Part shown: piece after piece, positions 1-19,851 of the stretch | How positions within the stretch are numbered: position 1 is the stretch's first letter | Layout: every line of letters starts with the position of its first letter | Source of the DNA: an uncultured Planctomycetaceae bacterium | GTDB taxonomy: Bacteria; Planctomycetota; Planctomycetia; Pirellulales; PALSA-1355 | Direction: 5' to 3' | DNA: 64,000 nucleotides | Assembly: GCA_937952415.1 (NCBI GenBank) | Contig: CALFYT010000069.1 | Location: forward strand, 439 to 64,438 | Made by a program: the position numbers and the translations under genes | Notes under the pieces: model-generated | What the model was told of the DNA's origin: nothing | Database searches by the model: none | Seen by the model: only the letters and a program-made list of their open reading frames with translations

Positions 1-662
1 CCCATCGTGGGCGACTCTTCCGAGCCCGGCACGTCGATCGTGGCCATGCCCGAGTCCGGCGGCGTGCCGTCGCCCCAATCGATCATGAACGTATACGATT
101 CGCCGCCTTCGCCCTGCGGTGCGGCGAACTCTGGTTCGAACTGTCCGCCGTAGTCGGTAAATGTGCCGATATCGGTGATCGAGAGCAGCGCGCCTTCATC
201 GATCGTTTGGTCCGATGCGACCGTCAGCGAAAGTCCTTCGCCGTACTCGTCGCCAACTGGAGCCAACTCTTCGGAACCCGTTTCAGCGGTCGACTGGGTG
301 GTAGGCGGATCGCCAACGAACGTGCTCACTTCGCTATCGATGTCGGAAAGCTCTTCCGGTTCGGCCGCCGCGGTGGGAGCAGCAGCGCCTGGTTCTTGCG
401 CCGGCGGTGGCTCTGCTGTGCCAGCATCGGCGCTACCCGACTCGCCCGGTTCCAGGCCAAGCGCGGTGCCCTCGGCCAGTCCGGTGAGCACGACGGGCGC
501 GATGACCACGGCGCCGGGACTAACCGACAGCACGCGACGCTGTTCGAGCTGCCGGACGAAGAAGGGGACGTCGCCGTGCCGTTCGCCGCGAGTTGGTTCC
601 GGCAACCTCCAATTCCGGCAGACCGCATCCCAGACTCTGGTGAGTCGCCACGGCCGTCGCAT
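1..662 (-). CDS. Large secreted/surface protein, N-terminal part (partial, continues past left edge); PKD-like motif
   Basis: Absent from the ORF track because it has no stop in the window. Manual minus-strand translation from the ATG at 662 stays open to position 1. It reads MRRPWRLTRVW..FFVRQLEQRRVLSVSPGAVV, then an acidic/Pro-rich linker, then ..ESYTFMIDWGDGTPPDSGMATIDVPG. The LEQRRVLS-type N-terminal motif and the WGDGT motif resemble large planctomycetal adhesin-like proteins. Confidence 0.55.
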   Translation of the reverse strand, partial: MRRPWRLTRVWDAVCRNWRLPEPTRGERHGDVPFFVRQLEQRRVLSVSPGAVVIAPVVLTGLAEGTALGLEPGESGSADAGTAEPPPAQEPGAAAPTAAAEPEELSDIDSEVSTFVGDPPTTQSTAETGSEELAPVGDEYGEGLSLTVASDQTIDEGALLSITDIGTFTDYGGQFEPEFAAPQGEGGESYTFMIDWGDGTPPDSGMATIDVPGSEESPTM

Positions 663-928: not shown

Positions 929-2407
929 ATGCGACATCTCGCGGCGCTGGTCATTCTGACGATCTGTTGGTCCGCATCGGGCTGTGCCACGGCCTTGCAG
1001 GGGGTCGCGCTGATTGGCGGCGCGCAGCCCGCCGCGCGGCAAACCACCCTGTCGGACTTCGGGCGCGTGGTCCAAAACTATTCGCCTGTGGGATCCGGGC
1101 AAGTGGCCACGGCAACCAGCGGCGCCGCTCAAGTGCTTGCTCCGTACGACGATTCGTCCGCCGCCGACGCGGACGCCATGCCAATCACGATGGCCGGCGA
1201 CGAGCCGAACCGACTGGCACCGGTTGCTCCGATGCCGCCCGAACTGCCATTGGGCCAACATGCGGCCCCGACCGAATTAGCCGACGTTGCGCCTCCATGC
1301 AACGATCTGCTTGACGAAGGTGGACGTAGCGCACTCGACGATACGGAGCCAGCGCCGATCGCGCCAGGCCCGGAGGCACTAGCATCCACATCGGGCGACG
1401 AGGACTCATTGCCGGGCGAGATCGCGCCGCTGCCGGACGAACTAGCACCAGCAGCACCGCGGTCGTTGTTACCCCAGCGCGAGGTCGTGCTGGCAACCGA
1501 CGCGGTCGCCGCCCGCTCCAATGCCGAGTTGGGCATTGATGGCGTGGTCGCCGGGCAATACGAACATCCGGCCTATCCCGACGTGGCCGCCGAGCCCGAG
1601 GCTCCAGATGCCCCGGGACCAGATGCACTGGGTTTGGCTGGTGACGAGCCGCCGATCGAAAGAAACGTCGCGCCTCAAACGAGCCAAACGGCACAGCCGC
1701 ATCACAACGCACCCGCCGACGCAACGGCAAGTGCGCAATTGCCGCCTGTGCCAAAGGTCGGCTCAAGTGCGCCCGCTGGGACGTTTGTAGACGAAGCGCA
1801 GGTTCACGTCAGCGATGCGGACGAATACTCGCCGCAGGACAGCGCAATTCCGCTGCTGGCCGACCCGCGCTACATGACCGCAAACCAAGGTGAAGTGGTG
1901 CCGTCTCCGGCGCCAGTGCCCACATCGCCATTCAAGTCAGGTGGCGAAGACGAGGACGCCGACCGATTCGGTCGCCACCTGTCGGACGTCATGCTCGACA
2001 TCCGGCCGACCGAAGGCGTCATGCCAACCGACGTAGCGGCGGAAATCTTCGAGCAACAGGCGATCACCGATCCGCGACAAACCCACGAAGGGCCTGGCAT
2101 CCTCTGCTCGTACACGCCATGGACGATTTGTTTCCGTCCGCTGTACTTCGAAGAAGTGGCGTTGGAGCGCTACGGCGAGAAGCGCCGCTTCCTTCAGCCG
2201 GCTGCCTCGGGCGTGCAGTTCCTGAAGAACATCGCGCTGCTGCCCTACAAGATGCGCGTCCGGCCGCCCCGGTCGTGCGTCTGCTCGAACGGATTCAGCC
2301 GCATTGGCGATTGTCCGCCGCCCGGCTACGGAGAGTGTGTATGGCGCTGGGACGCGGCGATCATCGAGGCCGCGGCCGTTACCGGCTTCGTATTCATCCT
2401 GCCGTAG
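929..2407 (+). CDS. Hypothetical lipoprotein, acidic Pro/Ala-rich with a Cys-rich C-terminal domain
   Basis: ORF 908..2407. The internal ATG at 929 gives MRHLAALVILTICWSASGC, a signal peptide with a lipobox Cys. The low-complexity middle is followed by an ordered C-terminus (CSYTPWTICFRPLYFEEVALERYGEKRRFLQP..CVCSNGFSRIGDCPPPGYGECVW). Confidence 0.7.
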   Translation: MRHLAALVILTICWSASGCATALQGVALIGGAQPAARQTTLSDFGRVVQNYSPVGSGQVATATSGAAQVLAPYDDSSAADADAMPITMAGDEPNRLAPVAPMPPELPLGQHAAPTELADVAPPCNDLLDEGGRSALDDTEPAPIAPGPEALASTSGDEDSLPGEIAPLPDELAPAAPRSLLPQREVVLATDAVAARSNAELGIDGVVAGQYEHPAYPDVAAEPEAPDAPGPDALGLAGDEPPIERNVAPQTSQTAQPHHNAPADATASAQLPPVPKVGSSAPAGTFVDEAQVHVSDADEYSPQDSAIPLLADPRYMTANQGEVVPSPAPVPTSPFKSGGEDEDADRFGRHLSDVMLDIRPTEGVMPTDVAAEIFEQQAITDPRQTHEGPGILCSYTPWTICFRPLYFEEVALERYGEKRRFLQPAASGVQFLKNIALLPYKMRVRPPRSCVCSNGFSRIGDCPPPGYGECVWRWDAAIIEAAAVTGFVFILP

Positions 2408-2433: not shown

Positions 2434-4647
2434 CTACTGGTTGAACGTCTGCTTTAACCAGCGCAAGAACTGAGCCCCCAGCGAACGCGGCGCAACGCTG
2501 ATCTTCGCCCGACCGTGAACGCGTGCCAGCGCGAGCTCTGGCCCCTCGTCGAAGCGCACTCGGGCCTGGTACCACGTGTCGAGCGGTCGTTGCAAGCCGT
2601 TCGGATCGCTCTCGGACGGAACGTCGCCGGCCGCGGCCAACGCGCGCGGCATGACGTCCAGATCGAGTTTGGCGACCTCGCTCACCTGCCCGGTGAAAAC
2701 CTGGCCCGGCAGATGGTCAAACATCATTCGCACCGGCTGGCCGGGCTCGACGAGTTCGACGTCGTTTTGCGCGACGTTGAGCATCGCTTCGAAGCGACTT
2801 GGATCGCCCACCAGACAGAGCAGCGTACCAGTTTCCAGGTAGCTGCCGAGATTGCGCGGATCCAGCGGCGTGCCCGACCAGTTCGGCAATTTGTCGGAAC
2901 GCGTTTCGTGCGAGACGGCCGGCGGCGGCAACACGGTTCCGTCGGTCGGTGCGACGAGCGTCAGCCGCGCCGCATCGGTTTTGAGCTGGGCGAGCCGCTT
3001 GTCCAAGTCCGCCAGGGCCTCGGTTGCCGCGGGGATGCGCGAGCCGTCATCTGTGCCTTGCAGACGCTGGGATTGGAGGTGCTCGAGGAACAGCCGCTGC
3101 CGATCGCGCTCGGAAGTTAGTTGTTGCAGCTCGAGCTGGATGTCGCGGTTCTTCAGGTGGGCCAGCGGCTGTTGGCTGGTGACCTGCTCGCCGACCGAAA
3201 CGCACTCTTCCAACTGCCCGGGCACGGTGACGTAGACGCGCTGCGCGTCGCGATACTCCAAGACAAGCGGCGCGGACACGTCCGTCGGAAGCGGAAAGAA
3301 CGCGACAAACAGCAGCAGGACGATTCCGGCACCAGCCGTGACGCCCACGCGCAGCGGCACCATCCGACGTCGGCGAGTGGGATCCGAGGCCCACCGGGCC
3401 GTTTGTGTCACCGCCGGCGCCGCCATGCCGATCAGCGTAACGCCGGCCAGCACGACCACCAGCGGTTCCAAGTGGTACGGCCGCGCCATTAGGTTCAGCG
3501 CCCATAAGATGGCGATCACGACGAGCCAGCGATAGATTGTCGCAGTGACCCAATACACGACCAACAGCGGCTTTCGGCGCTGCGGTGCGTCATCGGGCCC
3601 GCGAAGGTCGAGCCCGAACAGGGCCCGCGCGAAAAACCGCCGTGCCGCGATCGACGCTTGTTCGCGCAGATTGGGCACTTCGATCAGGTCCGACAGGATG
3701 TAGTATCCGTCGTACCGCAGCAGTGGATTGCCGTTGAGCACGACCGTTCCCACCGAACAGATGAGCATGGTATTGAGACACAACGCGTTGAACGTACCTG
3801 GCCCGCTAAACCACCACAGAAACGTGCAGACCGAGGCCAGCAGCAGCTCGACGTAGATCCCCGCGGCCGAAACGGCGATCCGGCGCCACTTGCTCGGCAG
3901 CATCCAGGAATCCGAGACATTGCAGTACAGGCAGGGCGTAAACACCAGCAGCATCAGCCCGATTTCGTGGCAGTCGCCTCCGAAGCGCCGGCACACCAGG
4001 GCGTGCGCCAGTTCGTGCAAGACCTTGATACCGGCCAGCGCAATCAACAGCAGTGGCACGTTCGAGGCCGACAGGATCGCACCGATCGCCGGGAGCCGCG
4101 CAGTAAACGCATCGAATTGGACAACGACCAACAACAGCGCTGCCAGTGCGAGCAACAAACCAGCGGCAACGCAAACGGGCGAGAACGCCCAGCCGAACCA
4201 ACGCTCAAGCACGTCCAGCACACGCGCCGGATTGAAGCCGCGGAATCGAATTGCCAGGACCGCCAGCAGCGACTCATAGCGGCGCTTGCGACGCTGTTCG
4301 TCGCGCCGAGCCAGAAGCTCGCGACCCTGCTCTGCAGAATCGGCCAACAACAGGCCATAGCGGTGCAGTGTCGCCAGGAAGCCGTGAAGTTGTTGCTCGG
4401 TGACGCGCCGCGGACGTAGATTGTCTTCGACGCGGCGGCGCAGCTCGGCAAGACTGACATGGCCGTCGAGCATCTGCAAGACGGCATGTTCCTCGTCGCG
4501 CAAGTGAAAGTACTTTAGCGCCGCCGGATCCTTCACGGCCCAGTAGCGCTGCCCGGCATAGTGCTGCGCCCGAAACTCCAGGTCGGGCCGCGCACGCAGG
4601 CCCAAGGCGCGATCAGCCGCAGATTCGAGTGGGGGCGCGACCGTCAT
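2434..4647 (-). CDS. Peptidase M50 (site-2 protease) domain fused to a HlyD-type membrane-fusion domain
   Basis: ORF 2434..4686 begins with TTG. The ATG at 4647 (MTVAPPLES) lies 4 nt after the upstream stop. HELAH zinc motif in a TM helix (nt 4003-4017) and NPLLRYDGYY third-ligand motif (3700-3729). Several TM helices. The C-terminal half has a coiled coil plus barrel-sandwich sequence typical of HlyD adaptors. Confidence 0.88.
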   Translation of the reverse strand: MTVAPPLESAADRALGLRARPDLEFRAQHYAGQRYWAVKDPAALKYFHLRDEEHAVLQMLDGHVSLAELRRRVEDNLRPRRVTEQQLHGFLATLHRYGLLLADSAEQGRELLARRDEQRRKRRYESLLAVLAIRFRGFNPARVLDVLERWFGWAFSPVCVAAGLLLALAALLLVVVQFDAFTARLPAIGAILSASNVPLLLIALAGIKVLHELAHALVCRRFGGDCHEIGLMLLVFTPCLYCNVSDSWMLPSKWRRIAVSAAGIYVELLLASVCTFLWWFSGPGTFNALCLNTMLICSVGTVVLNGNPLLRYDGYYILSDLIEVPNLREQASIAARRFFARALFGLDLRGPDDAPQRRKPLLVVYWVTATIYRWLVVIAILWALNLMARPYHLEPLVVVLAGVTLIGMAAPAVTQTARWASDPTRRRRMVPLRVGVTAGAGIVLLLFVAFFPLPTDVSAPLVLEYRDAQRVYVTVPGQLEECVSVGEQVTSQQPLAHLKNRDIQLELQQLTSERDRQRLFLEHLQSQRLQGTDDGSRIPAATEALADLDKRLAQLKTDAARLTLVAPTDGTVLPPPAVSHETRSDKLPNWSGTPLDPRNLGSYLETGTLLCLVGDPSRFEAMLNVAQNDVELVEPGQPVRMMFDHLPGQVFTGQVSEVAKLDLDVMPRALAAAGDVPSESDPNGLQRPLDTWYQARVRFDEGPELALARVHGRAKISVAPRSLGAQFLRWLKQTFNQ

Positions 4648-4651
4648 GACC

Positions 4652-5539
4652 TTACTGCCGCGAGTCCTGCGGCGCCGCGTCGCCAATGGTCATCGATCCG
4701 TGCAGCCCGGGGCGAAGCGTTGATTCGGGGTTTTCGATTTCTGCCCAGATCCGTACCTGGCCGTTGAACGGATCGATTTCGGGACTGACGTACGTCACCG
4801 TGCCGAAGAACTGCGTTGGCTGGCCGTCGATGTCGACGGTCAGTGTCGCCTTGCGACCTTTCAAATCGCTCGGCGCGTCGTCCGCCTTGATCATTCCTTC
4901 GGCCCGCAGCCGATCAAGACGCAGCACGCGGAGGATGGTCTGGCCGGGTTCGACCCATTCGCCCTGGTGCCGATTCACCTCCGCGACGAAACCGGCCAGC
5001 GGCGAAACAATCTGGCGCTGGCGAATCGCGTGCTTCGCGCTGTCCACTTCAATCTGCTTGATCTCGCGGCCCGCTTGCGCCAATTCCAGCTCGAGCTGGG
5101 CTTGTTCGATCTCCAGTTCGGTCTTTTGCACGCTCAAGCGCAGACGGTCCAACTCGGATTGCGACACGCTTTGGGCGAACCGCCGCTCGGATTCGATGGC
5201 TCGGCGCAACTCGGCTTGCGCCACTTCGAGCGACTTGCGCGCGAAGCGGACCTTGACGTCGCTATCGGCCTCTTTGGCCGCGGCGATCAGTTCCATCTCA
5301 GTGCGGCGTTTGTCGAATTGAGCGTCGGCATCGTCGATCTGCGCGACCGCGGCACCGGATTCCACCATTTGACCCTCGCGCGCGATCACTTTGTCCAACA
5401 CACCCGCCTCGCGCGCTGGCACCTCAACTTGATCCAACAACTTGACCAATACCGACGGAACACGAATCTCTGCGGCAGCCAGCCCCGAAGCGGAAGCAAC
5501 GATCATCACCACGGCCAGTAGTCGAATCGTGCGTGTCAT
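4652..5539 (-). CDS. HlyD-family periplasmic adaptor (membrane fusion protein)
   Basis: ORF 4652..5620. The internal ATG at 5539 gives MTRTIRLLAVVMIVASASGLAAAE, a signal anchor, 5 nt after the upstream stop. Long coiled-coil segment (ELEIEQAQLELELAQAGREIKQIEVD) flanked by lipoyl/beta-barrel-like segments (IVSPLAGFVAEV, GMIKADD..ATLTVD). Confidence 0.88.
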   Translation of the reverse strand: MTRTIRLLAVVMIVASASGLAAAEIRVPSVLVKLLDQVEVPAREAGVLDKVIAREGQMVESGAAVAQIDDADAQFDKRRTEMELIAAAKEADSDVKVRFARKSLEVAQAELRRAIESERRFAQSVSQSELDRLRLSVQKTELEIEQAQLELELAQAGREIKQIEVDSAKHAIRQRQIVSPLAGFVAEVNRHQGEWVEPGQTILRVLRLDRLRAEGMIKADDAPSDLKGRKATLTVDIDGQPTQFFGTVTYVSPEIDPFNGQVRIWAEIENPESTLRPGLHGSMTIGDAAPQDSRQ

Positions 5540-5544
5540 CGCTG

Positions 5545-7563
5545 TTACCACCACCAATGGGTTTGTATGAACGCGAGCACTTCGTGGAACCACACATATC
5601 CCAGCGACCGCCGGCCGCAATGCACTTTTGCCAAGACGGTTGCGCCGGGCCGCAGTCCCGCGACGTTCGCCCTATCGAATTTTACGGTTACCAGCACGTT
5701 GGGGCTTGTCGTTTCGTCAACCTCGGATGCCAGCGCCACGTCGGACACGTGCCCCGAGTATTCGACGCCCGGCTCGCTGGCCAATGCAAACTTCACTGCC
5801 AGATCCGGGCTGATGGCGTCGCGCGCTTCGAGTAGATGGCCCGCACGGTCGTCCGGCACGTGCAGTTCGACAATCCACGGTCCGTCCAGATCGCCAACGG
5901 TCATCAAGGCCTGACCGCGTTCGACCGGGCGAGCTTCAAGCAGCTCGCGGAGGTTCCACGTCAAGATTTGGCCGCCGATTGGGCTGCGCAACTGCAGGTC
6001 CGCCTGCCGCGCTTCCAGCACGTCGTGCTGCTGCGAAAGTCCCTTGAGCAGCTCTTTGACCTCCTCGACTTCCGCGGTTAGCCGTTGCGCATCGCGATCA
6101 CGGGCTGTTTGATCCCGATTGTTCGCAAGCGACTCGGCTTGCAAGGCAGCCAGTTTCTTTTCAGCAGTTCGAATCTCACCGGCCACACGGCGCAGATCGA
6201 GATCAAGCTGCGGTTGTCGCAGCAAGACGAGCGCTTGATCGGCATCAACCGATCCACCGTGATCCACCAACAACCGATCGACGACGCCGTCATCCGAGGC
6301 GAAGACGTCGCGTCGAACGGCCGGCTGCAACTCGCCCTTGGCTCCCACGTCGAAGTCGGCGGGTATCAACGTCAGCCCGGCCACTGCAAGACAAATTGCA
6401 ACTAGCGCCAGTACGGTCTTGGGCAACTGCCGGGCTTCGGTCAGCCAGCCGATCCGTGCCAGAACACGCCCCACGCGCGCCAACGGCATGTGGCTGTGCG
6501 CAATCGAGTTTGCCAAGGCCAATCCGCCATGCTCGCCAACTTGGGCCAAACGTTCGCGAAGTTCTGCTTGCCGTCCTGGCGATTCGAACTGCTCGGCCAC
6601 CAGCGCGCCGACAATGTGGCTCGGCTGTTGAACCACGCCCGATGCGCTCTGACGTAGCGGAATGATCGCCAGCAATCGGGCATGCGATTCGTCGAGGTAG
6701 GCGTGCAGGGGCTGCTCAATTTGGCCGGGCAAGTCCTCGTCGCCATCGCAGTACCAGATCGGATCGCCGGTGGCCATGCACGGCCCGACCAGGCGTTCGA
6801 GTGTGCGGAGCAGCTTCGAGCGTCGGTCGATCGCGTCGACACCGCTAACGGCTACCGTGCGAAAGTTTCGCCCGCGGCGTTGCAGTACGGTAAGTCGGTC
6901 ACAGCCGACAACGCGCCGGCCTTCATTAGCGATGCGATACGCTGTCGCCGCGGCGTCAAGATCGCGGTGAACGCGCAGGGCGAACTGATCGACCTGACCT
7001 CGGGCCGAATCGCGATCTCGCAGCCGGCTCAGCTCGCGCTGGCGGTGGAAATCGTCGGTCAGTTCGACCATCGCCTCGAGCAGACGCAGCAAGCCCTCGC
7101 GCTGGGCCGCGTTGAGCGGTTGTCGCTGTACCAACTCGATCACGCCGAAAGTGTGTTGGTTGATTCGAAACCGCTGGACGAACGCCCAGCCCGTTTCGCC
7201 CTGCTGTGCCTCGGTCGGCGAGCGGGCATTTTCGCGCAGCGCGATGCTCCGCGATTGCTCCTGGTGGAGGGTATCTTCGACCAGCACTTGATGGCTTGCT
7301 AGCAGCTCGCTGGCAGCGGCACTGGTCGAACGGATCAGTCCCGCCTGGTATTCGAGCCGCAGTTGCCCCGATTCGGCGGCGGTCCAGATTGCTCCGCCCG
7401 AAACGCCGGTCGCGGCAACGATTCGATCCAACAGCATCCGATAGAAGGCGACCTCCGACGGCGCGGAGCGGGCCGCAACCGAGAGCGCATCGAGCACATC
7501 CTCGATTTCGTGCCAGTCAGGATGGGACGGGCCGGAATCGACCCCAAGAGAATGGGAGCCCAT
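5545..7563 (-). CDS. Tandem GAF-like domains + TM + HlyD-type adaptor domain
   Basis: 672-aa ORF with ATG at 7563. The N-terminal ~370 aa are cytoplasmic and contain two GAF-like repeats (..GGAIWTAAESGQLRLEYQAG.. and ..RLTVLQRRGRNFRTVAVSGVD..). One TM helix (TVLALVAICLAVAGLTLIP). The rest is coiled coil plus beta-barrel adaptor sequence (LRSPIGGQILTW, ATVLAKVHCG). Confidence 0.82.
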   Translation of the reverse strand: MGSHSLGVDSGPSHPDWHEIEDVLDALSVAARSAPSEVAFYRMLLDRIVAATGVSGGAIWTAAESGQLRLEYQAGLIRSTSAAASELLASHQVLVEDTLHQEQSRSIALRENARSPTEAQQGETGWAFVQRFRINQHTFGVIELVQRQPLNAAQREGLLRLLEAMVELTDDFHRQRELSRLRDRDSARGQVDQFALRVHRDLDAAATAYRIANEGRRVVGCDRLTVLQRRGRNFRTVAVSGVDAIDRRSKLLRTLERLVGPCMATGDPIWYCDGDEDLPGQIEQPLHAYLDESHARLLAIIPLRQSASGVVQQPSHIVGALVAEQFESPGRQAELRERLAQVGEHGGLALANSIAHSHMPLARVGRVLARIGWLTEARQLPKTVLALVAICLAVAGLTLIPADFDVGAKGELQPAVRRDVFASDDGVVDRLLVDHGGSVDADQALVLLRQPQLDLDLRRVAGEIRTAEKKLAALQAESLANNRDQTARDRDAQRLTAEVEEVKELLKGLSQQHDVLEARQADLQLRSPIGGQILTWNLRELLEARPVERGQALMTVGDLDGPWIVELHVPDDRAGHLLEARDAISPDLAVKFALASEPGVEYSGHVSDVALASEVDETTSPNVLVTVKFDRANVAGLRPGATVLAKVHCGRRSLGYVWFHEVLAFIQTHWWW

Positions 7564-7893
7564 AGCGTTCGAGTATAGTCGATAAGCTGCGCAAAAACTG
7601 GTCGGCTCGGCGACCTTGCCAAGCGCATGTCAACGGCAACCGATTGGGGAAATCTTGACGATTGTAGTGAGAATTATGATGGGTTGGTCTGCGTTGCAGC
7701 CGATCTAGTAAAGCGAAGTGGGGGGCACCGTGCGGTAATTGCGCGCACGTTGCGCGCAGCCGCTTGACAGCGTCGACCAAAAAACTGCCCAAACCGTGCG
7801 ACCACAGCTAGCGGACCGATGCCGCCACCGGTGGGCCCGGCCAGCAGCTCGAACGATCCACGGATTTGGTGGGCTAATCGTCGTGCTTTCAAG

Positions 7894-10074
7894 ATGCTAA
7901 AACCCGGTGTACCCATCTCGCTGCTGCTCGCGACGTCGGTCGTTTTGTCCGGCTGTCTGGTGATCCATCCACCGTGCGAGGTTGATCCGGAGCAGGACTT
8001 CTACCGCACGGTCGCAACCACACCGATCGACACCGGCGGTGGCTGCGCGATGGAGCCCCTGCCACTTGCCACCGAGGCCCCGCTGACGATCGACGAAGAG
8101 TCGCCGCCGCCAGCTTGGGACCTGACGCAAGAACAAGTCATCCGGCTGGGCCTGGAAAACTCGAAGGTACTCCGTGATCTGGGCGGCAGCGTCCTGCGCA
8201 CGCCCCGGCTCGCACAAACAATTCACGATCCGGCCATTCAGGCCAGCGATCCGCGATTTGGCATGGAAGGGGCTCTGGCCGCCTTCGATGCGCAGGTATC
8301 CACCCGCCTGATGGCGTATCGTAACGACCGCGCGTTCAACAACTTGTTTCTGGGCGGCGGCACGTTCTTATTCCGCCAGGATCTGAACAATTTCGTCACG
8401 GAAGTCTCCAAGCAGACTGCCACCGGCGCATCGTACGCCGTCCGGCAGCGCATCGACTACGACGACAACAACGCGTTGGCCAACGTGTTTCGCAGCTATT
8501 TCAACGTCAATTTCGAGACGGAATTCCGCCAGCCGTTGCTGCAAGGAGCCGGTGTCGGATTCAACCGGATTGCCGGCCCCAACGGCGCCCCGGGCCAGGT
8601 CAACGGTGTTGTCATCGCGCGGATCAACAACGACATCAGCACGGCCGAATTCGAGCTGGCGCTGCGCGACTACATTAGCAACCTCGAAAACGCGTACTGG
8701 GATCTCTATTACGCGTATCGCGAACTGGATTCCCAGATCGCGGCCCGCGACGCCGCACTGAAAACCTGGCGAATCATCCAAGCCAACGTGCAGGAAGGGC
8801 GCGGCTACAGCAAGCTGCAAGAAGTTCAGGCCCTGGAACAATACTACCGCTTCCAGGAAGATGTGCTCGATGCCTTGGGCGGCCGGCGTGTCGAGCGAAC
8901 GCGCACCTACAACGGATCGAGCGGCGGCACGTTTCGCGGCGTGGGCGGCGTGCAAGCTGCTGAGCGGCGACTACGAATGTGGATGGGTGTGCCGATCAAT
9001 GACGGCAAGCTGATCCGCCCCACCGACGAGCCGCCCTCGGTTAAGATCGTCTACGACTGGCACCGCGTGGCAGAAGAAGCCTTGTCGCGCCGTCCGGAGT
9101 TGCGCCGCCAACAGGCTGCCGTCGAGCGCTCGAGCATGGAACTGGTCGCCAGCCGCAACTTCCTGCTACCACGGCTCGACATACTCGGGCTTTACCGTTG
9201 GCGCGGCTACGGTCACCGTTTGATCGGAGCCTGGGACCCCAACACGCCTTACGACAACGCGTTTGCCAGTTTGACCAGCGGGCAGTTCCAGGAATGGGAG
9301 CTCGGTTTTCAGTATGACATGCCGATCGGTTTCCGCCGCGAATACGCGGCCGTGCGCAACGCCCAATTCCGCGTTGCCCGCGAGCGTGCCATTCTCGAAG
9401 AGCAGGAACGACAAGCGATTCACGACCTGAGCGCGTCGATCGCCGAAGTAGCGCGGTCCTACGACGTGATGCAAGTCGGCTACAACCGGATGGTCGCTGC
9501 GCAGGATCAATACAGCCGAGCGTACGACGCCTTTTTCGAGTTGGGCGGCAAAGTGTCACTCGAACTCGTGCTCGACGCCCGACTCCGACTTGCCGACTCG
9601 GAAACCAGCTACCATCGGGCACGCATCGACTACGCGCTGTCACTGAAGAACGTTCACTACGAAAAGGGCTCGTTGCTCGACTACAACGGAGCCGTATTGG
9701 CCGACGGGCATTCGTGGCAGGGCGCGTCGGGTGACCTGGCGCGGAAGCGATTGCTCAAGGGCGAAGTGCCCGACATCAACTACGTGTTCGCGCGGCGCAA
9801 GAAGCAGCAGCACAACCCGTACGCGGATCTTCCGCAAGGCGACGTGACCGAATTGGGCGAGCCGGGCGGTGTGCAACTTCTACCCGATGGCGAGCCCGCC
9901 GGCGGTTTTCCGCCCGACGTCAGCATTCCCACACCGAGCGATCCGCCGCCCTGGTCGTCCGGCGACGATGTGCCGGTCCGGCGGTCGAACTGGACAGACA
10001 GCCAGGCGGCTTCCAGGTTGCCCGAGGGTTCACTTCCGCCGGAGCCGTCGCAGCAATTCACCGTCGGCGATTAA
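7894..10074 (+). CDS. TolC-family outer-membrane efflux lipoprotein with a Pro-rich C-terminal tail
   Basis: ORF 7819..10074. The ATG at 7894 gives MLKPGVPISLLLATSVVLSGC (lipobox). Two TolC/OEP repeats are recognisable (LENSKVLR.., AEFELALRDYISNLENAYWDLYYAYRELD, RPELRRQQAAVERSSMELVASRNFLLPRLD, AQDQYSRAYDAF). The last ~110 aa are Pro-rich and low-complexity. Confidence 0.85.
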   Translation: MLKPGVPISLLLATSVVLSGCLVIHPPCEVDPEQDFYRTVATTPIDTGGGCAMEPLPLATEAPLTIDEESPPPAWDLTQEQVIRLGLENSKVLRDLGGSVLRTPRLAQTIHDPAIQASDPRFGMEGALAAFDAQVSTRLMAYRNDRAFNNLFLGGGTFLFRQDLNNFVTEVSKQTATGASYAVRQRIDYDDNNALANVFRSYFNVNFETEFRQPLLQGAGVGFNRIAGPNGAPGQVNGVVIARINNDISTAEFELALRDYISNLENAYWDLYYAYRELDSQIAARDAALKTWRIIQANVQEGRGYSKLQEVQALEQYYRFQEDVLDALGGRRVERTRTYNGSSGGTFRGVGGVQAAERRLRMWMGVPINDGKLIRPTDEPPSVKIVYDWHRVAEEALSRRPELRRQQAAVERSSMELVASRNFLLPRLDILGLYRWRGYGHRLIGAWDPNTPYDNAFASLTSGQFQEWELGFQYDMPIGFRREYAAVRNAQFRVARERAILEEQERQAIHDLSASIAEVARSYDVMQVGYNRMVAAQDQYSRAYDAFFELGGKVSLELVLDARLRLADSETSYHRARIDYALSLKNVHYEKGSLLDYNGAVLADGHSWQGASGDLARKRLLKGEVPDINYVFARRKKQQHNPYADLPQGDVTELGEPGGVQLLPDGEPAGGFPPDVSIPTPSDPPPWSSGDDVPVRRSNWTDSQAASRLPEGSLPPEPSQQFTVGD

Positions 10075-10126
10075 TGTTGACTAGGACGCGTCGCTGGTGC
10101 GACAGACAGCGCTCCGGCTCGATCGG

Positions 10127-11044
10127 CTAGTGCCGGCGCCGGCGCACAGCGCACGCCAGCAGGAGTCCGCCCGCGGCCAACAGCCACACCGAGCTTGGTT
10201 CGGGCACGACGACCGGGATGACCATCAGGGTGTAGCTGCCCGTCTCGGCGTGAACGCCCAGAAAGTCTTCATCGTCGGCGCCGGTCACCGCCAGCAGAAC
10301 GCGTCCCAGGCCATCGGCCGTGCCCACGATCGTCGGCGTGCCGTCCTGGTCAGCGTCCAGCAACAAGTTGCTGGGCCCGCCGAACAGCCCGAGCCGGGCA
10401 TTGAACGTCAGGTCCGACAACAGCGCTGTAAACGCTTGATCGGGCGCAAGCCCCGAGAACAAGAAGAAGTCGACCGAATCACCGCTGCCGGGCCCGACGA
10501 TGTTTTGCACGGTAACCGTCACGGTGCCGCCGTTGCGCTCGGGCTCGGGTATGACCGGTGGATCGATCCAGATGTTGTCGACGAAGCCGGGCGTGACCGT
10601 CTCGAATTCGAGCGACAGCGTTTGGAAGAAAACGTCACTCGAGTCATACAGGTCGAATTGAACGTAGTACGCTCCGGACTGCGCGTGCGCGCCGATGAAA
10701 CTGGTGTCCGGAGCGCCGGTGACGCGGAAGTAGGCCGAGCCGTTGGGCTCGAGCGGCACGCCGACCAATTGACTGGCAAACCCATTACCCAGCGGGCTGC
10801 TATTGTCGTCGCTGATGTGCAACGTGCTGTAGGCCGGATCGTAGTGCCCCAGCAACGTGTTGGGTCGGCCCGCGTTGCCGTTGAGATCGTCGCTCACGAT
10901 CAGCAGGCCCGACGGCAAGATGGCCGCGGTGCCGACCGTGTTGTTCGGTTCGTAAATCGAAACCGCCTCGACGCGCGCAGCGACACCGCTCAGCATCAGC
11001 GCCAGCAACGCGATCAGGGTTCGTTTAATTCTGGAAAACAACAT
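10127..11044 (-). CDS. PEP-CTERM-anchored secreted protein with pre-peptidase-C-terminal-like beta-sandwich domains
   Basis: ORF 10127..11197. The ATG at 11044 gives a signal peptide, MLFSRIKRTLIALLALMLSGVAARVEA. YEPNNTVGTAA is an EPND-type motif. The C-terminus VVPEPSSVWLLAAGGLLLACAVRRRRH is a classical PEP-CTERM sorting signal (PEP motif, TM helix, Arg cluster). Confidence 0.85.
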   Translation of the reverse strand: MLFSRIKRTLIALLALMLSGVAARVEAVSIYEPNNTVGTAAILPSGLLIVSDDLNGNAGRPNTLLGHYDPAYSTLHISDDNSSPLGNGFASQLVGVPLEPNGSAYFRVTGAPDTSFIGAHAQSGAYYVQFDLYDSSDVFFQTLSLEFETVTPGFVDNIWIDPPVIPEPERNGGTVTVTVQNIVGPGSGDSVDFFLFSGLAPDQAFTALLSDLTFNARLGLFGGPSNLLLDADQDGTPTIVGTADGLGRVLLAVTGADDEDFLGVHAETGSYTLMVIPVVVPEPSSVWLLAAGGLLLACAVRRRRH

Positions 11045-11386
11045 AGTACGACGCGCAGTAAAAGGCGGATCCTTCGACCGTCGCGATCGTTGCGTTCGAG
11101 CGGCACAGTGCGCGCAGCGAAAACGCAACACGACAACGGAAGCAAGACTCGCGCGAGCCTTAACAGGGTGGAAAGAAGAGTCCGCGGAACAACACAAAGA
11201 GGTGTCGTTCCGTTGGGTGCGGGCTCTTAAGCGACGATCATTAGCAAGTTGGCGCTTGTGCGCGGGGACGGCCAGATCCTGCCATCGGGCAGGCGCGGTC
11301 CGTCCAGGATCGATCTAACGGTGACTCTAGCCACGTGCTGGCGTCGGGTCAAGCAGTTTTCAGAAACTTTGGCCTTTTTCGACCGT

Positions 11387-18375: not shown

Positions 18376-19851
18376 CTAGCGCAACACGCGATCGGTCGGT
18401 TCGGTCGATGAGCTGGACCACCGCACGCCGCCGGCGGGAAGGGCCCGCTGCCGGCCGGAGGCCGGCTGCCGCGCTGCCGGAACTTGCAACGAGGTCAAAT
18501 GCCGCGCACTCTGTGCTTCGCGATCCGCCGCCAATTGGCGAAGGAACTCCGGAGAGGCCCGATCGAGGCGAATGACTTCGCTCGGAGCGTTTGTGTCGTC
18601 CAGCGATCGGACAATGCAAATCACTTCCGCGCCGTCGCCCTGGCCGCGCAGCTCGGCCAGCGTGGCTTGCTCGCGGGCCGTCATCAGCGCGGCGTTTGCG
18701 GTGGCGTGAGCCATCGATTCCGCTTCCGACGTTTCGGGCATCGCCACCAAGACGGAGGGCGACGGACGCGCCGCGTAGACCGCAGTTAGTCCGGACCCAT
18801 CGAGGTGGCTATGAATCGACTCCAATGCGGCGTACAGACCTTCGTTGTCGGCCGGATCGGCCGCGTTACAAACGCCGATGACGTGGCCGTCGGTCGTGAA
18901 TAGTCCGCCACCACTGCGCCCCTCGACCGGCAATCCGGCCACTTGCAGATTAGGCGGGCCCAGGAACTTGTTCTTCGAATTGATCTGGCTGTCGATGGCC
19001 GTCGGCGGACCACCGTTGTTGCAACCCACCGTAATTACCGCGTCGCCTTGGGCGATCGCGCGGCCCTTGGGCGCCACGGGCGCCACGTGAACCGGCACGC
19101 CTGGACGAATGCTGACCAGCCCGAGGTCGCGCTTCAGGTCATAGCCGACCAACCGGCCGGGCAACTGCTTGGGATCGTCTGGGCCGAGCATGTCGACCAG
19201 GATCGTTCCTTTGCCCTGCGATTCGCGAAAGATGTGGCCGCAGGTCAAAATCAGGGCTTCGCCCTGCCGTGCGTCGATCAACGTGCCGGTGCCGTACGAG
19301 GAACCGGTGGCGTCTTCGATCTTTAGCCGCACGCTGGCCCGGACCAATTGTTGCCGGGTGGTCGATTGTCCGCCGTTGGGTGCCGGGTTGTCGTAAGCGC
19401 TCGGGCCGGTCGGTTCGTGGGAAGGGCTCGGTAGAACGGCGGTTGCGGGTTCGTTGTGGGCCGTTTCGATCGTGCGCGTGCTGCCCGGGGTATAGGAGTC
19501 GGGCGATTGAGCGCGGGCAATGCTCGAAGACCGGCCGTGTGGTTCGACTCCGGCGTTTTTGAACATCGCCACGAGCCGGTTCCGCCGCACCGCGCCAGTG
19601 ACGCGCGAAACTTCGCGCCCGTCAACCAGCAGCACGAAACTAGGAACCGATTGCACGTTGAAGCGGTCGGCCAAGGCCCGCTCGTGATCGATGTCTACCT
19701 TGCGCACCGGGTAGCCGGCACGCTGGAGCTGGGCGACAGTGCCTTCCATGGCGCGGCACGGCGCGCACCACGTAGCCTGAAAATCCAAGAGCACGGTATC
19801 ACTTGGTCCGGAGACAGCAAGGACCAAAGCGGCAATCTGCACTGAGACCAT
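18376..19851 (-). CDS. Thioredoxin domain fused to a trypsin-like (S1) serine protease domain
   Basis: 491-aa ORF with ATG at 19851. WCAPC redox motif (nt 19756-19770). The downstream protease domain has candidate triad residues H205 (LTCGHIF), D242 (KRDLGLV) and S313 (GRSGGGLF). About 140 aa at the C-terminus are unassigned. Confidence 0.85.
   Translation of the reverse strand: MVSVQIAALVLAVSGPSDTVLLDFQATWCAPCRAMEGTVAQLQRAGYPVRKVDIDHERALADRFNVQSVPSFVLLVDGREVSRVTGAVRRNRLVAMFKNAGVEPHGRSSSIARAQSPDSYTPGSTRTIETAHNEPATAVLPSPSHEPTGPSAYDNPAPNGGQSTTRQQLVRASVRLKIEDATGSSYGTGTLIDARQGEALILTCGHIFRESQGKGTILVDMLGPDDPKQLPGRLVGYDLKRDLGLVSIRPGVPVHVAPVAPKGRAIAQGDAVITVGCNNGGPPTAIDSQINSKNKFLGPPNLQVAGLPVEGRSGGGLFTTDGHVIGVCNAADPADNEGLYAALESIHSHLDGSGLTAVYAARPSPSVLVAMPETSEAESMAHATANAALMTAREQATLAELRGQGDGAEVICIVRSLDDTNAPSEVIRLDRASPEFLRQLAADREAQSARHLTSLQVPAARQPASGRQRALPAGGVRWSSSSTEPTDRVLR

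Follow-up and report, generated by a model that had tools for sequence, protein, structure and literature searches.

What might an intramembrane protease do when its own polypeptide runs on into a periplasmic adaptor? The question is raised by a gene on contig CALFYT010000069.1 of an uncultured Planctomycetaceae bacterium (Pirellulales, PALSA-1355; GenBank assembly GCA_937952415.1). We analysed a stretch of 64,000 nucleotides of this contig (positions 439 to 64,438), here called the window, in which the gene occupies positions 2434 to 4647 of the minus strand. A preliminary description, made from the letters of the sequence, had recognized an M50 site-2 protease (S2P) and a membrane-fusion (HlyD) domain joined in its product. 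To these the present analysis adds an N-terminal RiPP-recognition element (RRE; RiPP, a peptide made on the ribosome and modified after translation), and comparison of the predicted protein and its neighbours with related loci makes us lean towards a secretion system whose S2P subunit would recognize and cleave the leader of large surface proteins.

A three-part fusion protein

The longest minus-strand open reading frame (ORF) at this position spans 2434 to 4686 and, counted from the ATG at 4647, encodes 737 residues. Pfam profiles for both recognized parts scored above their gathering cut-offs, with 32.0 bits for Peptidase_M50 (PF02163; cut-off 27.2), 37.5 bits for HlyD_D23 (cut-off 30) and 29.7 bits for HlyD_3 (cut-off 22.2). 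The reading frame, the profile matches and the conservation described below bear out the presence of a protease and an adaptor in one polypeptide. Twenty-five homologues (45-66% identity) were aligned as input for AlphaFold2, and the resulting model had a mean predicted local distance difference test (pLDDT) score of 79.7 and consisted of an N-terminal alpha/beta domain, an Arg-rich linker helix, seven hydrophobic helices and an adaptor module starting at residue 452. Since Foldseek searches with the full-length model returned adaptor matches only, residues 1-462 were modelled separately. The protein is a fusion of an RRE, an S2P and a periplasmic adaptor; the preliminary description had identified the latter two correctly and overlooked the PqqD/RRE-like domain at the N-terminus. 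In the model it forms a predicted inner-membrane protein of three modules, with the RRE in the cytoplasm, a zinc protease within the membrane and the adaptor in the periplasm. Judged from the sequence, this pattern of motifs and domains is more than chance would produce.

The N-terminal domain was modelled as beta-strands within residues 17-50 followed by three helices within residues 51-96. This combination of a three-stranded sheet with a three-helix winged-helix fold is that of an RRE, and Foldseek searches with residues 1-462 matched PqqD (5sxy), TbiB1 (5v1v) and a lasso B1 protein (6jx3) with a probability of 1.0 and TM-scores of 0.64-0.68. The TbiB1 and lasso B1 structures are complexes with leader peptides. 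Sequence profiles gave a weaker signal, with sub-threshold matches to Pfam PqqD in 15 of the 25 family members and to TIGR03859 in five of them, and the Methylosinus orthologue was named 'PqqD family protein' by the Prokaryotic Genome Annotation Pipeline (PGAP).

The best curated family for residues 33-408 was NF041824, the daptide intramembrane metalloprotease (180.5 bits, E = 5e-53), followed by YydH/LiaK (NF058609). The score remained below the NF041824 equivalog cut-off of 300 bits, and no daptide tailoring genes were found near the fusion gene in the window or conserved in related loci. In daptide clusters, the RRE-S2P homologous to the fusion protein is the leader peptidase (bioRxiv 10.1101/2023.03.08.531785). 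The daptide and YydH/LiaK proteases share with the fusion protein the order of an N-terminal RRE and an M50 intramembrane protease, and they act on the leaders of ribosomal peptides. They differ in belonging to Gram-positive peptide clusters with tailoring enzymes and in lacking both a periplasmic adaptor domain and a TolC partner. The profile matches place the S2P in this RRE-fused leader-peptidase type and not in the anti-sigma-cleaving type of RseP and SpoIVFB. The release of anti-sigma or transcription-factor fragments had been taken as the norm for S2Ps; the subfamily relevant here is a different one. For a protease of the leader-peptidase type, processing of a substrate for export is the natural expectation.

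The C-terminal 287 residues were modelled as a lipoyl domain, an alpha-hairpin (helices 501-529 and 538-560) and a beta-barrel. Foldseek matched this half to MacA (3fpp, E = 3e-12) and to EmrA, MexA, AcrA and ZneB, with E-values ranging from 3e-12 to 1e-8, and a profile match to EmrA (4tko) was also obtained. Both coiled-coil strings quoted in the preliminary description are present, and its view of the C-terminal ca. 300 residues as adaptor-like agrees with the model.

Active site and topology of the protease

The two protease motifs lie exactly where they had been reported. HELAH (nt 4003-4017) corresponds to residues 211-215 and sits in a transmembrane (TM) helix of the model comprising residues 194-221, and NPLLRYDGYY (nt 3700-3729) corresponds to residues 307-316. 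The consensus of the second S2P motif is NxxPxxxxDG. After helix 285-303 the fusion protein reads N305-G-N-P308-L-L-R-Y-D313-G314, which matches this consensus and supplies the expected Asp ligand. Residues H211, E212, H215, N305, N307, P308, D313 and G314 were invariant among the 25 homologues and were also kept in nine homologues from Proteobacteria (26-30% identity), one of which has Asp-Ser instead of Asp-Gly. The invariance of the catalytic residues from Planctomycetes to Proteobacteria argues for catalysis and, with the metal-ligand motifs intact throughout the family, the protease is probably active, as had been proposed.

The S2P core contains seven long hydrophobic helices between residues 157 and 450 in the AlphaFold2 model, and a re-entrant beta-hairpin (residues 229-242) directly follows the HExxH helix. 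Among structures in the PDB, the top Foldseek match for residues 1-462 was the M. jannaschii enzyme mjS2P (3b4r; E = 0.04, probability 0.97). Profile comparison aligned the HELAH region with the HExxH region of the same structure; apart from this marginal match, neither single-sequence nor profile searches of the PDB found an S2P.

The distribution of Lys and Arg residues was used to orient the helices. The segments predicted to be cytoplasmic carry 27 (N-terminal 156 residues), 6 (loop 305-355) and 4 (loop 422-430) such residues, and the predicted periplasmic loops carry 1 (177-193), 0 (281-284) and 0 (392-393). Given seven TM helices, the N-terminus and both motifs face the cytoplasm according to this pattern, and the adaptor comes to lie in the periplasm. 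The motifs are thus predicted to occupy the S2P catalytic positions, at the Lys/Arg-rich ends of TM2 and TM4, and the earlier suggestion of a periplasmic HlyD-like half agrees with the helix count and the positive-inside pattern.

In comparison with RseP, SpoIVFB and mjS2P, the fusion protein shares the HExxH motif in a TM helix, the NxxPxxxxDG motif, the hairpin after the HExxH helix and a predicted active site near the cytoplasm. It differs in the lack of PDZ or CBS domains, the extra TM helices and the fused RRE and adaptor; sequence similarity to the solved S2Ps is negligible and a regulatory-cascade context is absent. On either side of the re-entrant hairpin that adjoins HExxH lie four cysteines (C219, C226, C239 and C242; nt 3922-3993, minus strand). 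Within the Planctomycetia clade they show little or no variation, and V, A, M or D takes their place in the proteobacterial homologues. A second metal site particular to this lineage, or disulfides, could be formed by these residues, in a region where the confidence of the AlphaFold2 model is low.

Leader-bearing giant genes beside proteobacterial homologues

Full-length proteobacterial homologues (26-30% identity) were obtained by tblastn searches of plasmids and chromids, and their HExxH and NxxPxxxxD(G/S) motifs are intact. Besides TolC, their operons encode two adaptor-type proteins, one of them short and the other a longer HlyD protein; they contain no ABC transporter and lie beside giant genes of 3,500-16,000 codons. 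TolC was found within the operon in six of the proteobacterial contexts examined. The neighbour is a 4,459-residue Ig-like protein on an E. coli IncF plasmid, an 8,847-residue LamG protein in Methylosinus, a Ca-binding protein of ca. 8,150 residues in Alisedimentitalea, a 4,033-residue protein in Thalassospira that PGAP names 'LEPR-XLL domain-containing protein', a 16,239-residue tandem-95 repeat protein in Variovorax and a 3,504-residue ORF in Burkholderia. In C. metallidurans CH34 and Azospirillum the neighbouring ORFs exceed 2,300 residues and run past the end of the retrieved stretch. The Methylosinus protein scored 28.7 bits with NF012209, the hidden Markov model for LEPR-XLL proteins, against a cut-off of 17 bits.

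A basic stretch and, after it, a LEPR-XLL-type motif are present at all six giant-gene N-termini that were visible. The form of the motif varies with that of the protease. Leaders of subtype A (LEPRxLL[SNA]AD) pair with NGNPL[LQ]RFD[GS] proteases, and the adaptor carries a GAF domain where this was checked (Methylosinus). Leaders of subtype B (LExRx[LM]FD[GA]AA) pair with NxSPFMRFDG proteases and shorter HlyD proteins (ca. 450-480 residues), of which the E. coli protein gave no GAF match. The co-variation of leader and protease, together with the dedicated RRE, argues for specific recognition of the substrate N-terminus.

The gene directly following the fusion gene in Methylosinus and Alisedimentitalea encodes a truncated SecA-like protein of ca. 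640-650 residues with SecA_DEAD, PPXD and P-loop domains in both Alphaproteobacteria. No ABC, RND or MFS transporter was found in the operons of E. coli, Methylosinus, Thalassospira and Variovorax. Giant proteins with the LEPRxLL motif, the group represented by NF012209, adjoin homologues of the fusion gene. The group also includes Cag_663/Cag_665 of Chlorobium chlorochromatii. The giants of C. chlorochromatii (36,806 and 20,647 residues) are described as having no known transport signal, with a TolC gene between them (bioRxiv 10.64898/2026.03.19.712371), and West-Roberts et al. reported truncated SecA DEAD/PPXD domains embedded within giant proteins. In the literature searched, which omits most subscription-journal papers, we found no link between the S2P fusion and LEPR-type leaders.

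Several annotations in these loci deserve comment. In the Alisedimentitalea giant gene (plasmid locus L090; 'calcium-binding protein') the start codon is evidently annotated too far downstream, which hides the LEPRLLLAAD leader. The truncated SecA-like ATPase on Methylosinus plasmid pMSC49a (L084, 10168-12084) is annotated as 'prepilin peptidase', and its Alisedimentitalea counterpart as 'SecA'. EHEC (enterohaemorrhagic E. coli) O-island 28 was considered as an E. coli counterpart of the module and rejected, being a canonical ABC-type type I secretion system.

Operon and distribution

In the window the fusion gene is the last of three genes in a tightly coupled operon (Table 1). The stop codon of the leading gene, which encodes a GAF-adaptor protein, lies 5 nt before the ATG of a short adaptor gene, and the stop codon of the latter lies 4 nt before the ATG of the fusion gene. 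The short adaptor scored 102.7 bits with TIGR01730 (RND_mfp), above the cut-off, and matched HlyD_D23 with E = 9e-20. Pairwise E-values among the three adaptor modules were between 0.002 and >1, which rules out a recent duplication. A TolC-like lipoprotein gene (Pfam OEP, E = 6e-23; also TIGR01844) adjoins the operon divergently at a distance of 256 bp, so that an outer-membrane channel on which the adaptor could dock, as had been envisaged, is encoded next to it. Typical TolC proteins have ca. 490 residues and no Pro-rich tail; the protein encoded here ends in a Pro-rich, low-complexity tail of roughly 100 residues. No ABC, RND or MFS transporter is encoded in the operon or within ca. 25 kb in the window, and an HlyB-type ABC transporter of canonical type I secretion is neither present in this range nor conserved in related loci.

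Table 1. Position of the features discussed, numbered from the first nucleotide of the window
Feature	Position (nt)	Strand	Description	Basis
RRE-S2P-adaptor fusion gene	2434..4647	-	737 aa, closes the operon	ORF, translation, Pfam, homologues, AlphaFold2
PqqD-like RRE, predicted cytoplasmic	4342..4605	-	ca. aa 15-102	AlphaFold2, Foldseek, weak Pfam/TIGRFAM matches
Seven-TM S2P (M50) core	3298..4230	-	ca. aa 140-450	PF02163, NF041824, Foldseek 3b4r, TM/positive-inside pattern
HELAH zinc-binding/catalytic motif	4003..4017	-	H211, E212, H215; predicted cytoplasmic end of TM2	coordinates, invariance
NGNPLLRYDGYY, second S2P motif (NxxPxxxxDG)	3700..3735	-	Asp313 as third metal ligand; predicted cytoplasmic end of TM4	coordinates, conservation
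Periplasmic adaptor (membrane-fusion protein) domain	2437..3297	-	aa 451-737	Foldseek, Pfam HlyD_D23/HlyD_3, profile
Short periplasmic adaptor	4652..5539	-	ca. 295 aa, N-terminal signal/anchor	TIGR01730, HlyD_D23
GAF-TM-adaptor protein	5545..7563	-	672 aa, opens the operon	Pfam GAF aa 205-347, HlyD_3 aa 525-637
TolC-like outer-membrane factor	7819..10074	+	751 aa, lipobox LSGC, Pro-rich C-terminal tail	OEP, TIGR01844
Pro-rich tail of the TolC-like protein	9760-10074	+	C-terminal ca. 105 aa	
Candidate substrate	1..662	-	first 220 aa of a large protein with PKD-type repeats; ATG at 662, cut by the window edge	
Lipoprotein-like gene	929..2407	+	lipobox SASGC, Ala/Pro-rich middle, Cys-rich C-terminal domain	
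377-aa protein	10097-11230	+	directly after the TolC-like gene	
491-aa protein	18376-19851	-	N-terminal thioredoxin and trypsin-like peptidase domains	

The fusion is widespread. Among the candidates scored there were 3,602 matches to the family, and the best 120 were almost all full-length at ca. 737 residues. Clustered at 50% identity, 20,459 clusters were found at E <= 1e-3 and 5,932 at E <= 1e-30, most of the best 150 again being full-length. At least 599 species-representative genomes carry the fusion. The preliminary description had proposed a survey of its spread and of the genes that always accompany it; all 80 loci kept for this neighbourhood comparison are from Planctomycetia metagenome-assembled genomes. 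Of the 62 loci with enough upstream sequence, 57 had the short adaptor ahead of the fusion gene, 57 had the GAF-adaptor, and 56 had both in the same order and on the same strand. An adjacent OEP gene was found in 8 of 51 loci, and in 8 of 81 the trio was immediately preceded, on its own strand, by a SecA-like gene of 652-749 codons. Clustering of the flanking ORFs in 54 long loci revealed no conserved neighbours beyond the trio, and no ABC, RND or MFS transporter conserved among these loci; OEP, SecA-like and putative beta-barrel proteins recurred in subsets.

A family of signal-peptide-bearing proteins of 431-514 residues was noted in seven loci without an adjacent TolC-like gene (L033, L051, L070, L071, L073, L075 and L082; ca. 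2-4 kb, minus strand), encoded divergently from the SecA-like gene. Inspected by eye, these sequences resemble outer-membrane beta-barrel proteins and could represent an alternative outer-membrane partner.

The fusion gene, the GAF-adaptor, the short adaptor and the TolC-like lipoprotein probably constitute an envelope-spanning, type-I-like secretion module. Type I systems such as HlyBD-TolC and LapBCE export large repetitive adhesins via an adaptor and a TolC-like channel, and in peptidase-containing ABC transporters of the ComA/CvaB type the removal of an N-terminal leader is coupled to export (reviewed in PMC8277102). The module resembles these systems in its adaptor, its TolC-like channel and the large repetitive proteins associated with it. 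It differs in having three distinct adaptors instead of one and no ABC transporter, its peptidase is an S2P metalloprotease instead of a C39 cysteine protease, and its putative signal is N-terminal, whereas that of RTX substrates is C-terminal and uncleaved.

The same module was described by Kamneva, Poudel and Ward in 2015 (PLoS One e0129066, PMC4452313), who arrived at it from secondary SecA_DEAD proteins. They reported co-encoded clusters of Peptidase_M50+HlyD, HlyD/biotin-lipoyl and GAF+HlyD proteins in Planctomycetes and Proteobacteria, with OEP in some loci and no ABC transporter, and proposed SecA_DEAD as the ATPase and the M50 protein as a possible pore; a secretion-related role was concluded for the module and its biological role was called 'completely unknown'. 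The three families are co-encoded in the window, which is an instance of that module, although the secondary SecA_DEAD gene that defined the locus in PMC4452313 is absent from the 64 kb. Given this report, the fusion and the operon are not new. An S2P that may dock on an outer-membrane channel is unusual, as the preliminary description held, but not new, the arrangement having been reported bioinformatically in 2015. In PMC4452313 the M50 similarity was called weak, and an RRE and a substrate were not reported. What appears to be new here is the RRE domain and the proteobacterial linkage to leader-bearing giant genes with subtype co-variation.

A candidate substrate in the window

The window itself contains a gene with a leader of this kind. 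A regular expression for the leader motif had one match in 64 kb, the minus-strand gene starting at 662, downstream of the fusion gene. Its translated N-terminus reads MRRPWRLTRVWDAVCRNWRLPEPTRGERHGDVPFFVRQLEQRRVLSVS and is followed by a PKD-like repeat. The same leader is found on orthologues of 1,395-1,874+ residues, whose genes lie at the corresponding place downstream of the fusion gene in the closest loci, L001, L003, L004 and L005. In the Planctomycetia loci, N-termini with a basic stretch and the motif were found in 8 of 606 ORFs of at least 300 residues as compared to 3 of 2,127 internal control windows, an enrichment of ca. 9-fold. The resemblance of the candidate to the LEPR-XLL giants is at the level of the motif only (LEQRRVLS), and its length of ca. 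1,600 residues compares to 8,000 or more for the giants.

Proposed mechanism and alternatives

By analogy with RRE-dependent RiPP enzymes and peptidase-containing ABC exporters, we infer how the leader might be bound and cleaved, and how passage of the inner membrane might be achieved and powered. Large repetitive surface proteins would bear an N-terminal leader consisting of a basic stretch followed by phi-x-L-E-x-R-x-L-L/F-S/D. The RRE would capture the LExRxLL segment by beta-strand addition, and the S2P site would cleave the leader at the cytoplasmic face of the membrane. The polypeptide might then pass along the tube of adaptors and exit by the TolC-like channel, with the GAF domain gating export in response to a cytoplasmic ligand and, where present, a SecA-like motor driving translocation. 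The gene with its ATG at nt 662 would be the candidate substrate in the window.

A number of observations weigh against this scheme, the support for which comes from genomic evidence and structural prediction. The structural match to a solved S2P (3b4r) is weak. With NF012209, for which the threshold is 17 bits, the candidate substrate and its orthologues in L001 and L005 scored below threshold, so that membership of the LEPR-XLL group is at motif level only. The candidate is large and not giant, as are its orthologues, and a leader-bearing gene within 10 kb was found in only 8 of 81 Planctomycetia loci. No inner-membrane channel or energy source was found in the 64-kb window, and tblastn gave no match to a SecA-like gene there, though one could be located elsewhere in the genome. 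Finally, the alpha-hairpin regions of the three adaptors look unequal in length when their sequences are read, which argues against a simple mixed hexamer.

Three other roles for the protein are less consistent with the neighbourhood data. Since the daptide intramembrane metalloprotease ranks first among the family matches (E = 5e-53), YydH/LiaK also matches and RiPP enzymes typically have an RRE fold, the RRE-S2P might remove the leader of a short RiPP or bacteriocin peptide that is exported via the fused adaptor and TolC, as in the daptide and YydFGHIJ systems. This seems improbable in view of an NF041824 score (180) well under the cut-off of 300, and because modification enzymes, precursor-like genes or an ABC exporter are not conserved around the trio in the 54 long loci and the recurrent proteobacterial neighbours are giant genes, not short ORFs. 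We also find little reason to favour regulated intramembrane proteolysis, in which the S2P would cut a membrane-tethered regulator while the adaptor and the GAF domain sense the state of the envelope or the TolC channel. It is the classical role of S2Ps such as RseP and SpoIVFB, and the operon partner does carry a GAF sensor domain, but the conserved neighbours include no gene for a sigma factor, an anti-sigma factor or a transcription factor, the protein belongs by its predicted subfamily to leader peptidases, which have an RRE where PDZ or CBS domains might be expected, and three adaptors with an outer-membrane factor point to a conduit.

The M50 domain could also serve mainly as a scaffold or pore, or clear stalled substrates or signal peptides, instead of removing leaders. 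RseP also degrades remnant signal peptides, and the module encodes no other polytopic inner-membrane protein. The pore was suggested by Kamneva et al. (PMC4452313). Such roles are at odds with catalytic residues that are all strictly invariant in Planctomycetes and Proteobacteria alike, with the dedicated RRE and with the co-variation of leader and protease, and we regard them as unlikely.

Leader recognition and cleavage by the S2P subunit of a secretion system is thus the reading towards which we incline. A wider version of it is put forward tentatively: the fusion may be the signal-recognition and signal-removal subunit of an unrecognized LEPR-XLL export pathway, which would consist of three adaptors and a TolC-like channel and have a truncated SecA-like ATPase where an ABC transporter would otherwise stand, whose substrates would include some of the largest bacterial proteins known, and which may serve as a near-universal general route for large surface proteins in Planctomycetia.

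Other genes at the locus

A lipoprotein-like gene without Pfam or NCBIfam match lies between the fusion operon and the candidate substrate gene. Its C-terminal 150-170 residues are kept, at the same position and on the same strand, in L001-L005 and L055. It may encode an accessory component, its membership in the system being uncertain. On the other side, the 377-residue protein encoded after the TolC-like gene has no family match; in L001 and L003 its homologues are encoded beside the OEP gene, and the L001 copy has a weak PEP-CTERM annotation. The 491-residue protein with thioredoxin and trypsin-like domains is unrelated to the fusion gene.

In the proteobacterial loci, small DUF3467 genes lie between the giant and the GAF-adaptor genes of Methylosinus (L084, 5690-6010) and Thalassospira (L091, 9705-10001), and a SapC-family gene lies upstream of the giant gene of Alisedimentitalea (L090, 1558-2355; compare Cag_662 of Chlorobium chlorochromatii). 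These may be chaperone or accessory genes. In Variovorax (L093, 14216-22846) a set of genes for type II secretion (gspG, K, M, D, E and F) directly follows the fusion gene on the same strand.

Implications

LEPR-XLL giants, known from symbionts, vibrios, rhizosphere bacteria and Planctomycetes, range from 4,000 to over 36,000 residues. With the RRE and the linkage to subtype-matched leaders, a module of 'function unknown' acquires a secretion hypothesis that is specific and can be tested. Natural plasmids of E. coli and Citrobacter, which carry one candidate substrate gene, then a TolC gene and three adaptor genes with the fusion gene last, offer a tractable test bed. If the proposed role is correct, it would reveal a new secretion route with an intramembrane metalloprotease at its core and extend the biology of S2Ps, so far one of signalling and the maturation of peptides, to protein export. 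It would also explain the module left as 'function unknown' in 2015 and would provide a sequence rule by which the surface proteome of Planctomycetes could be predicted.

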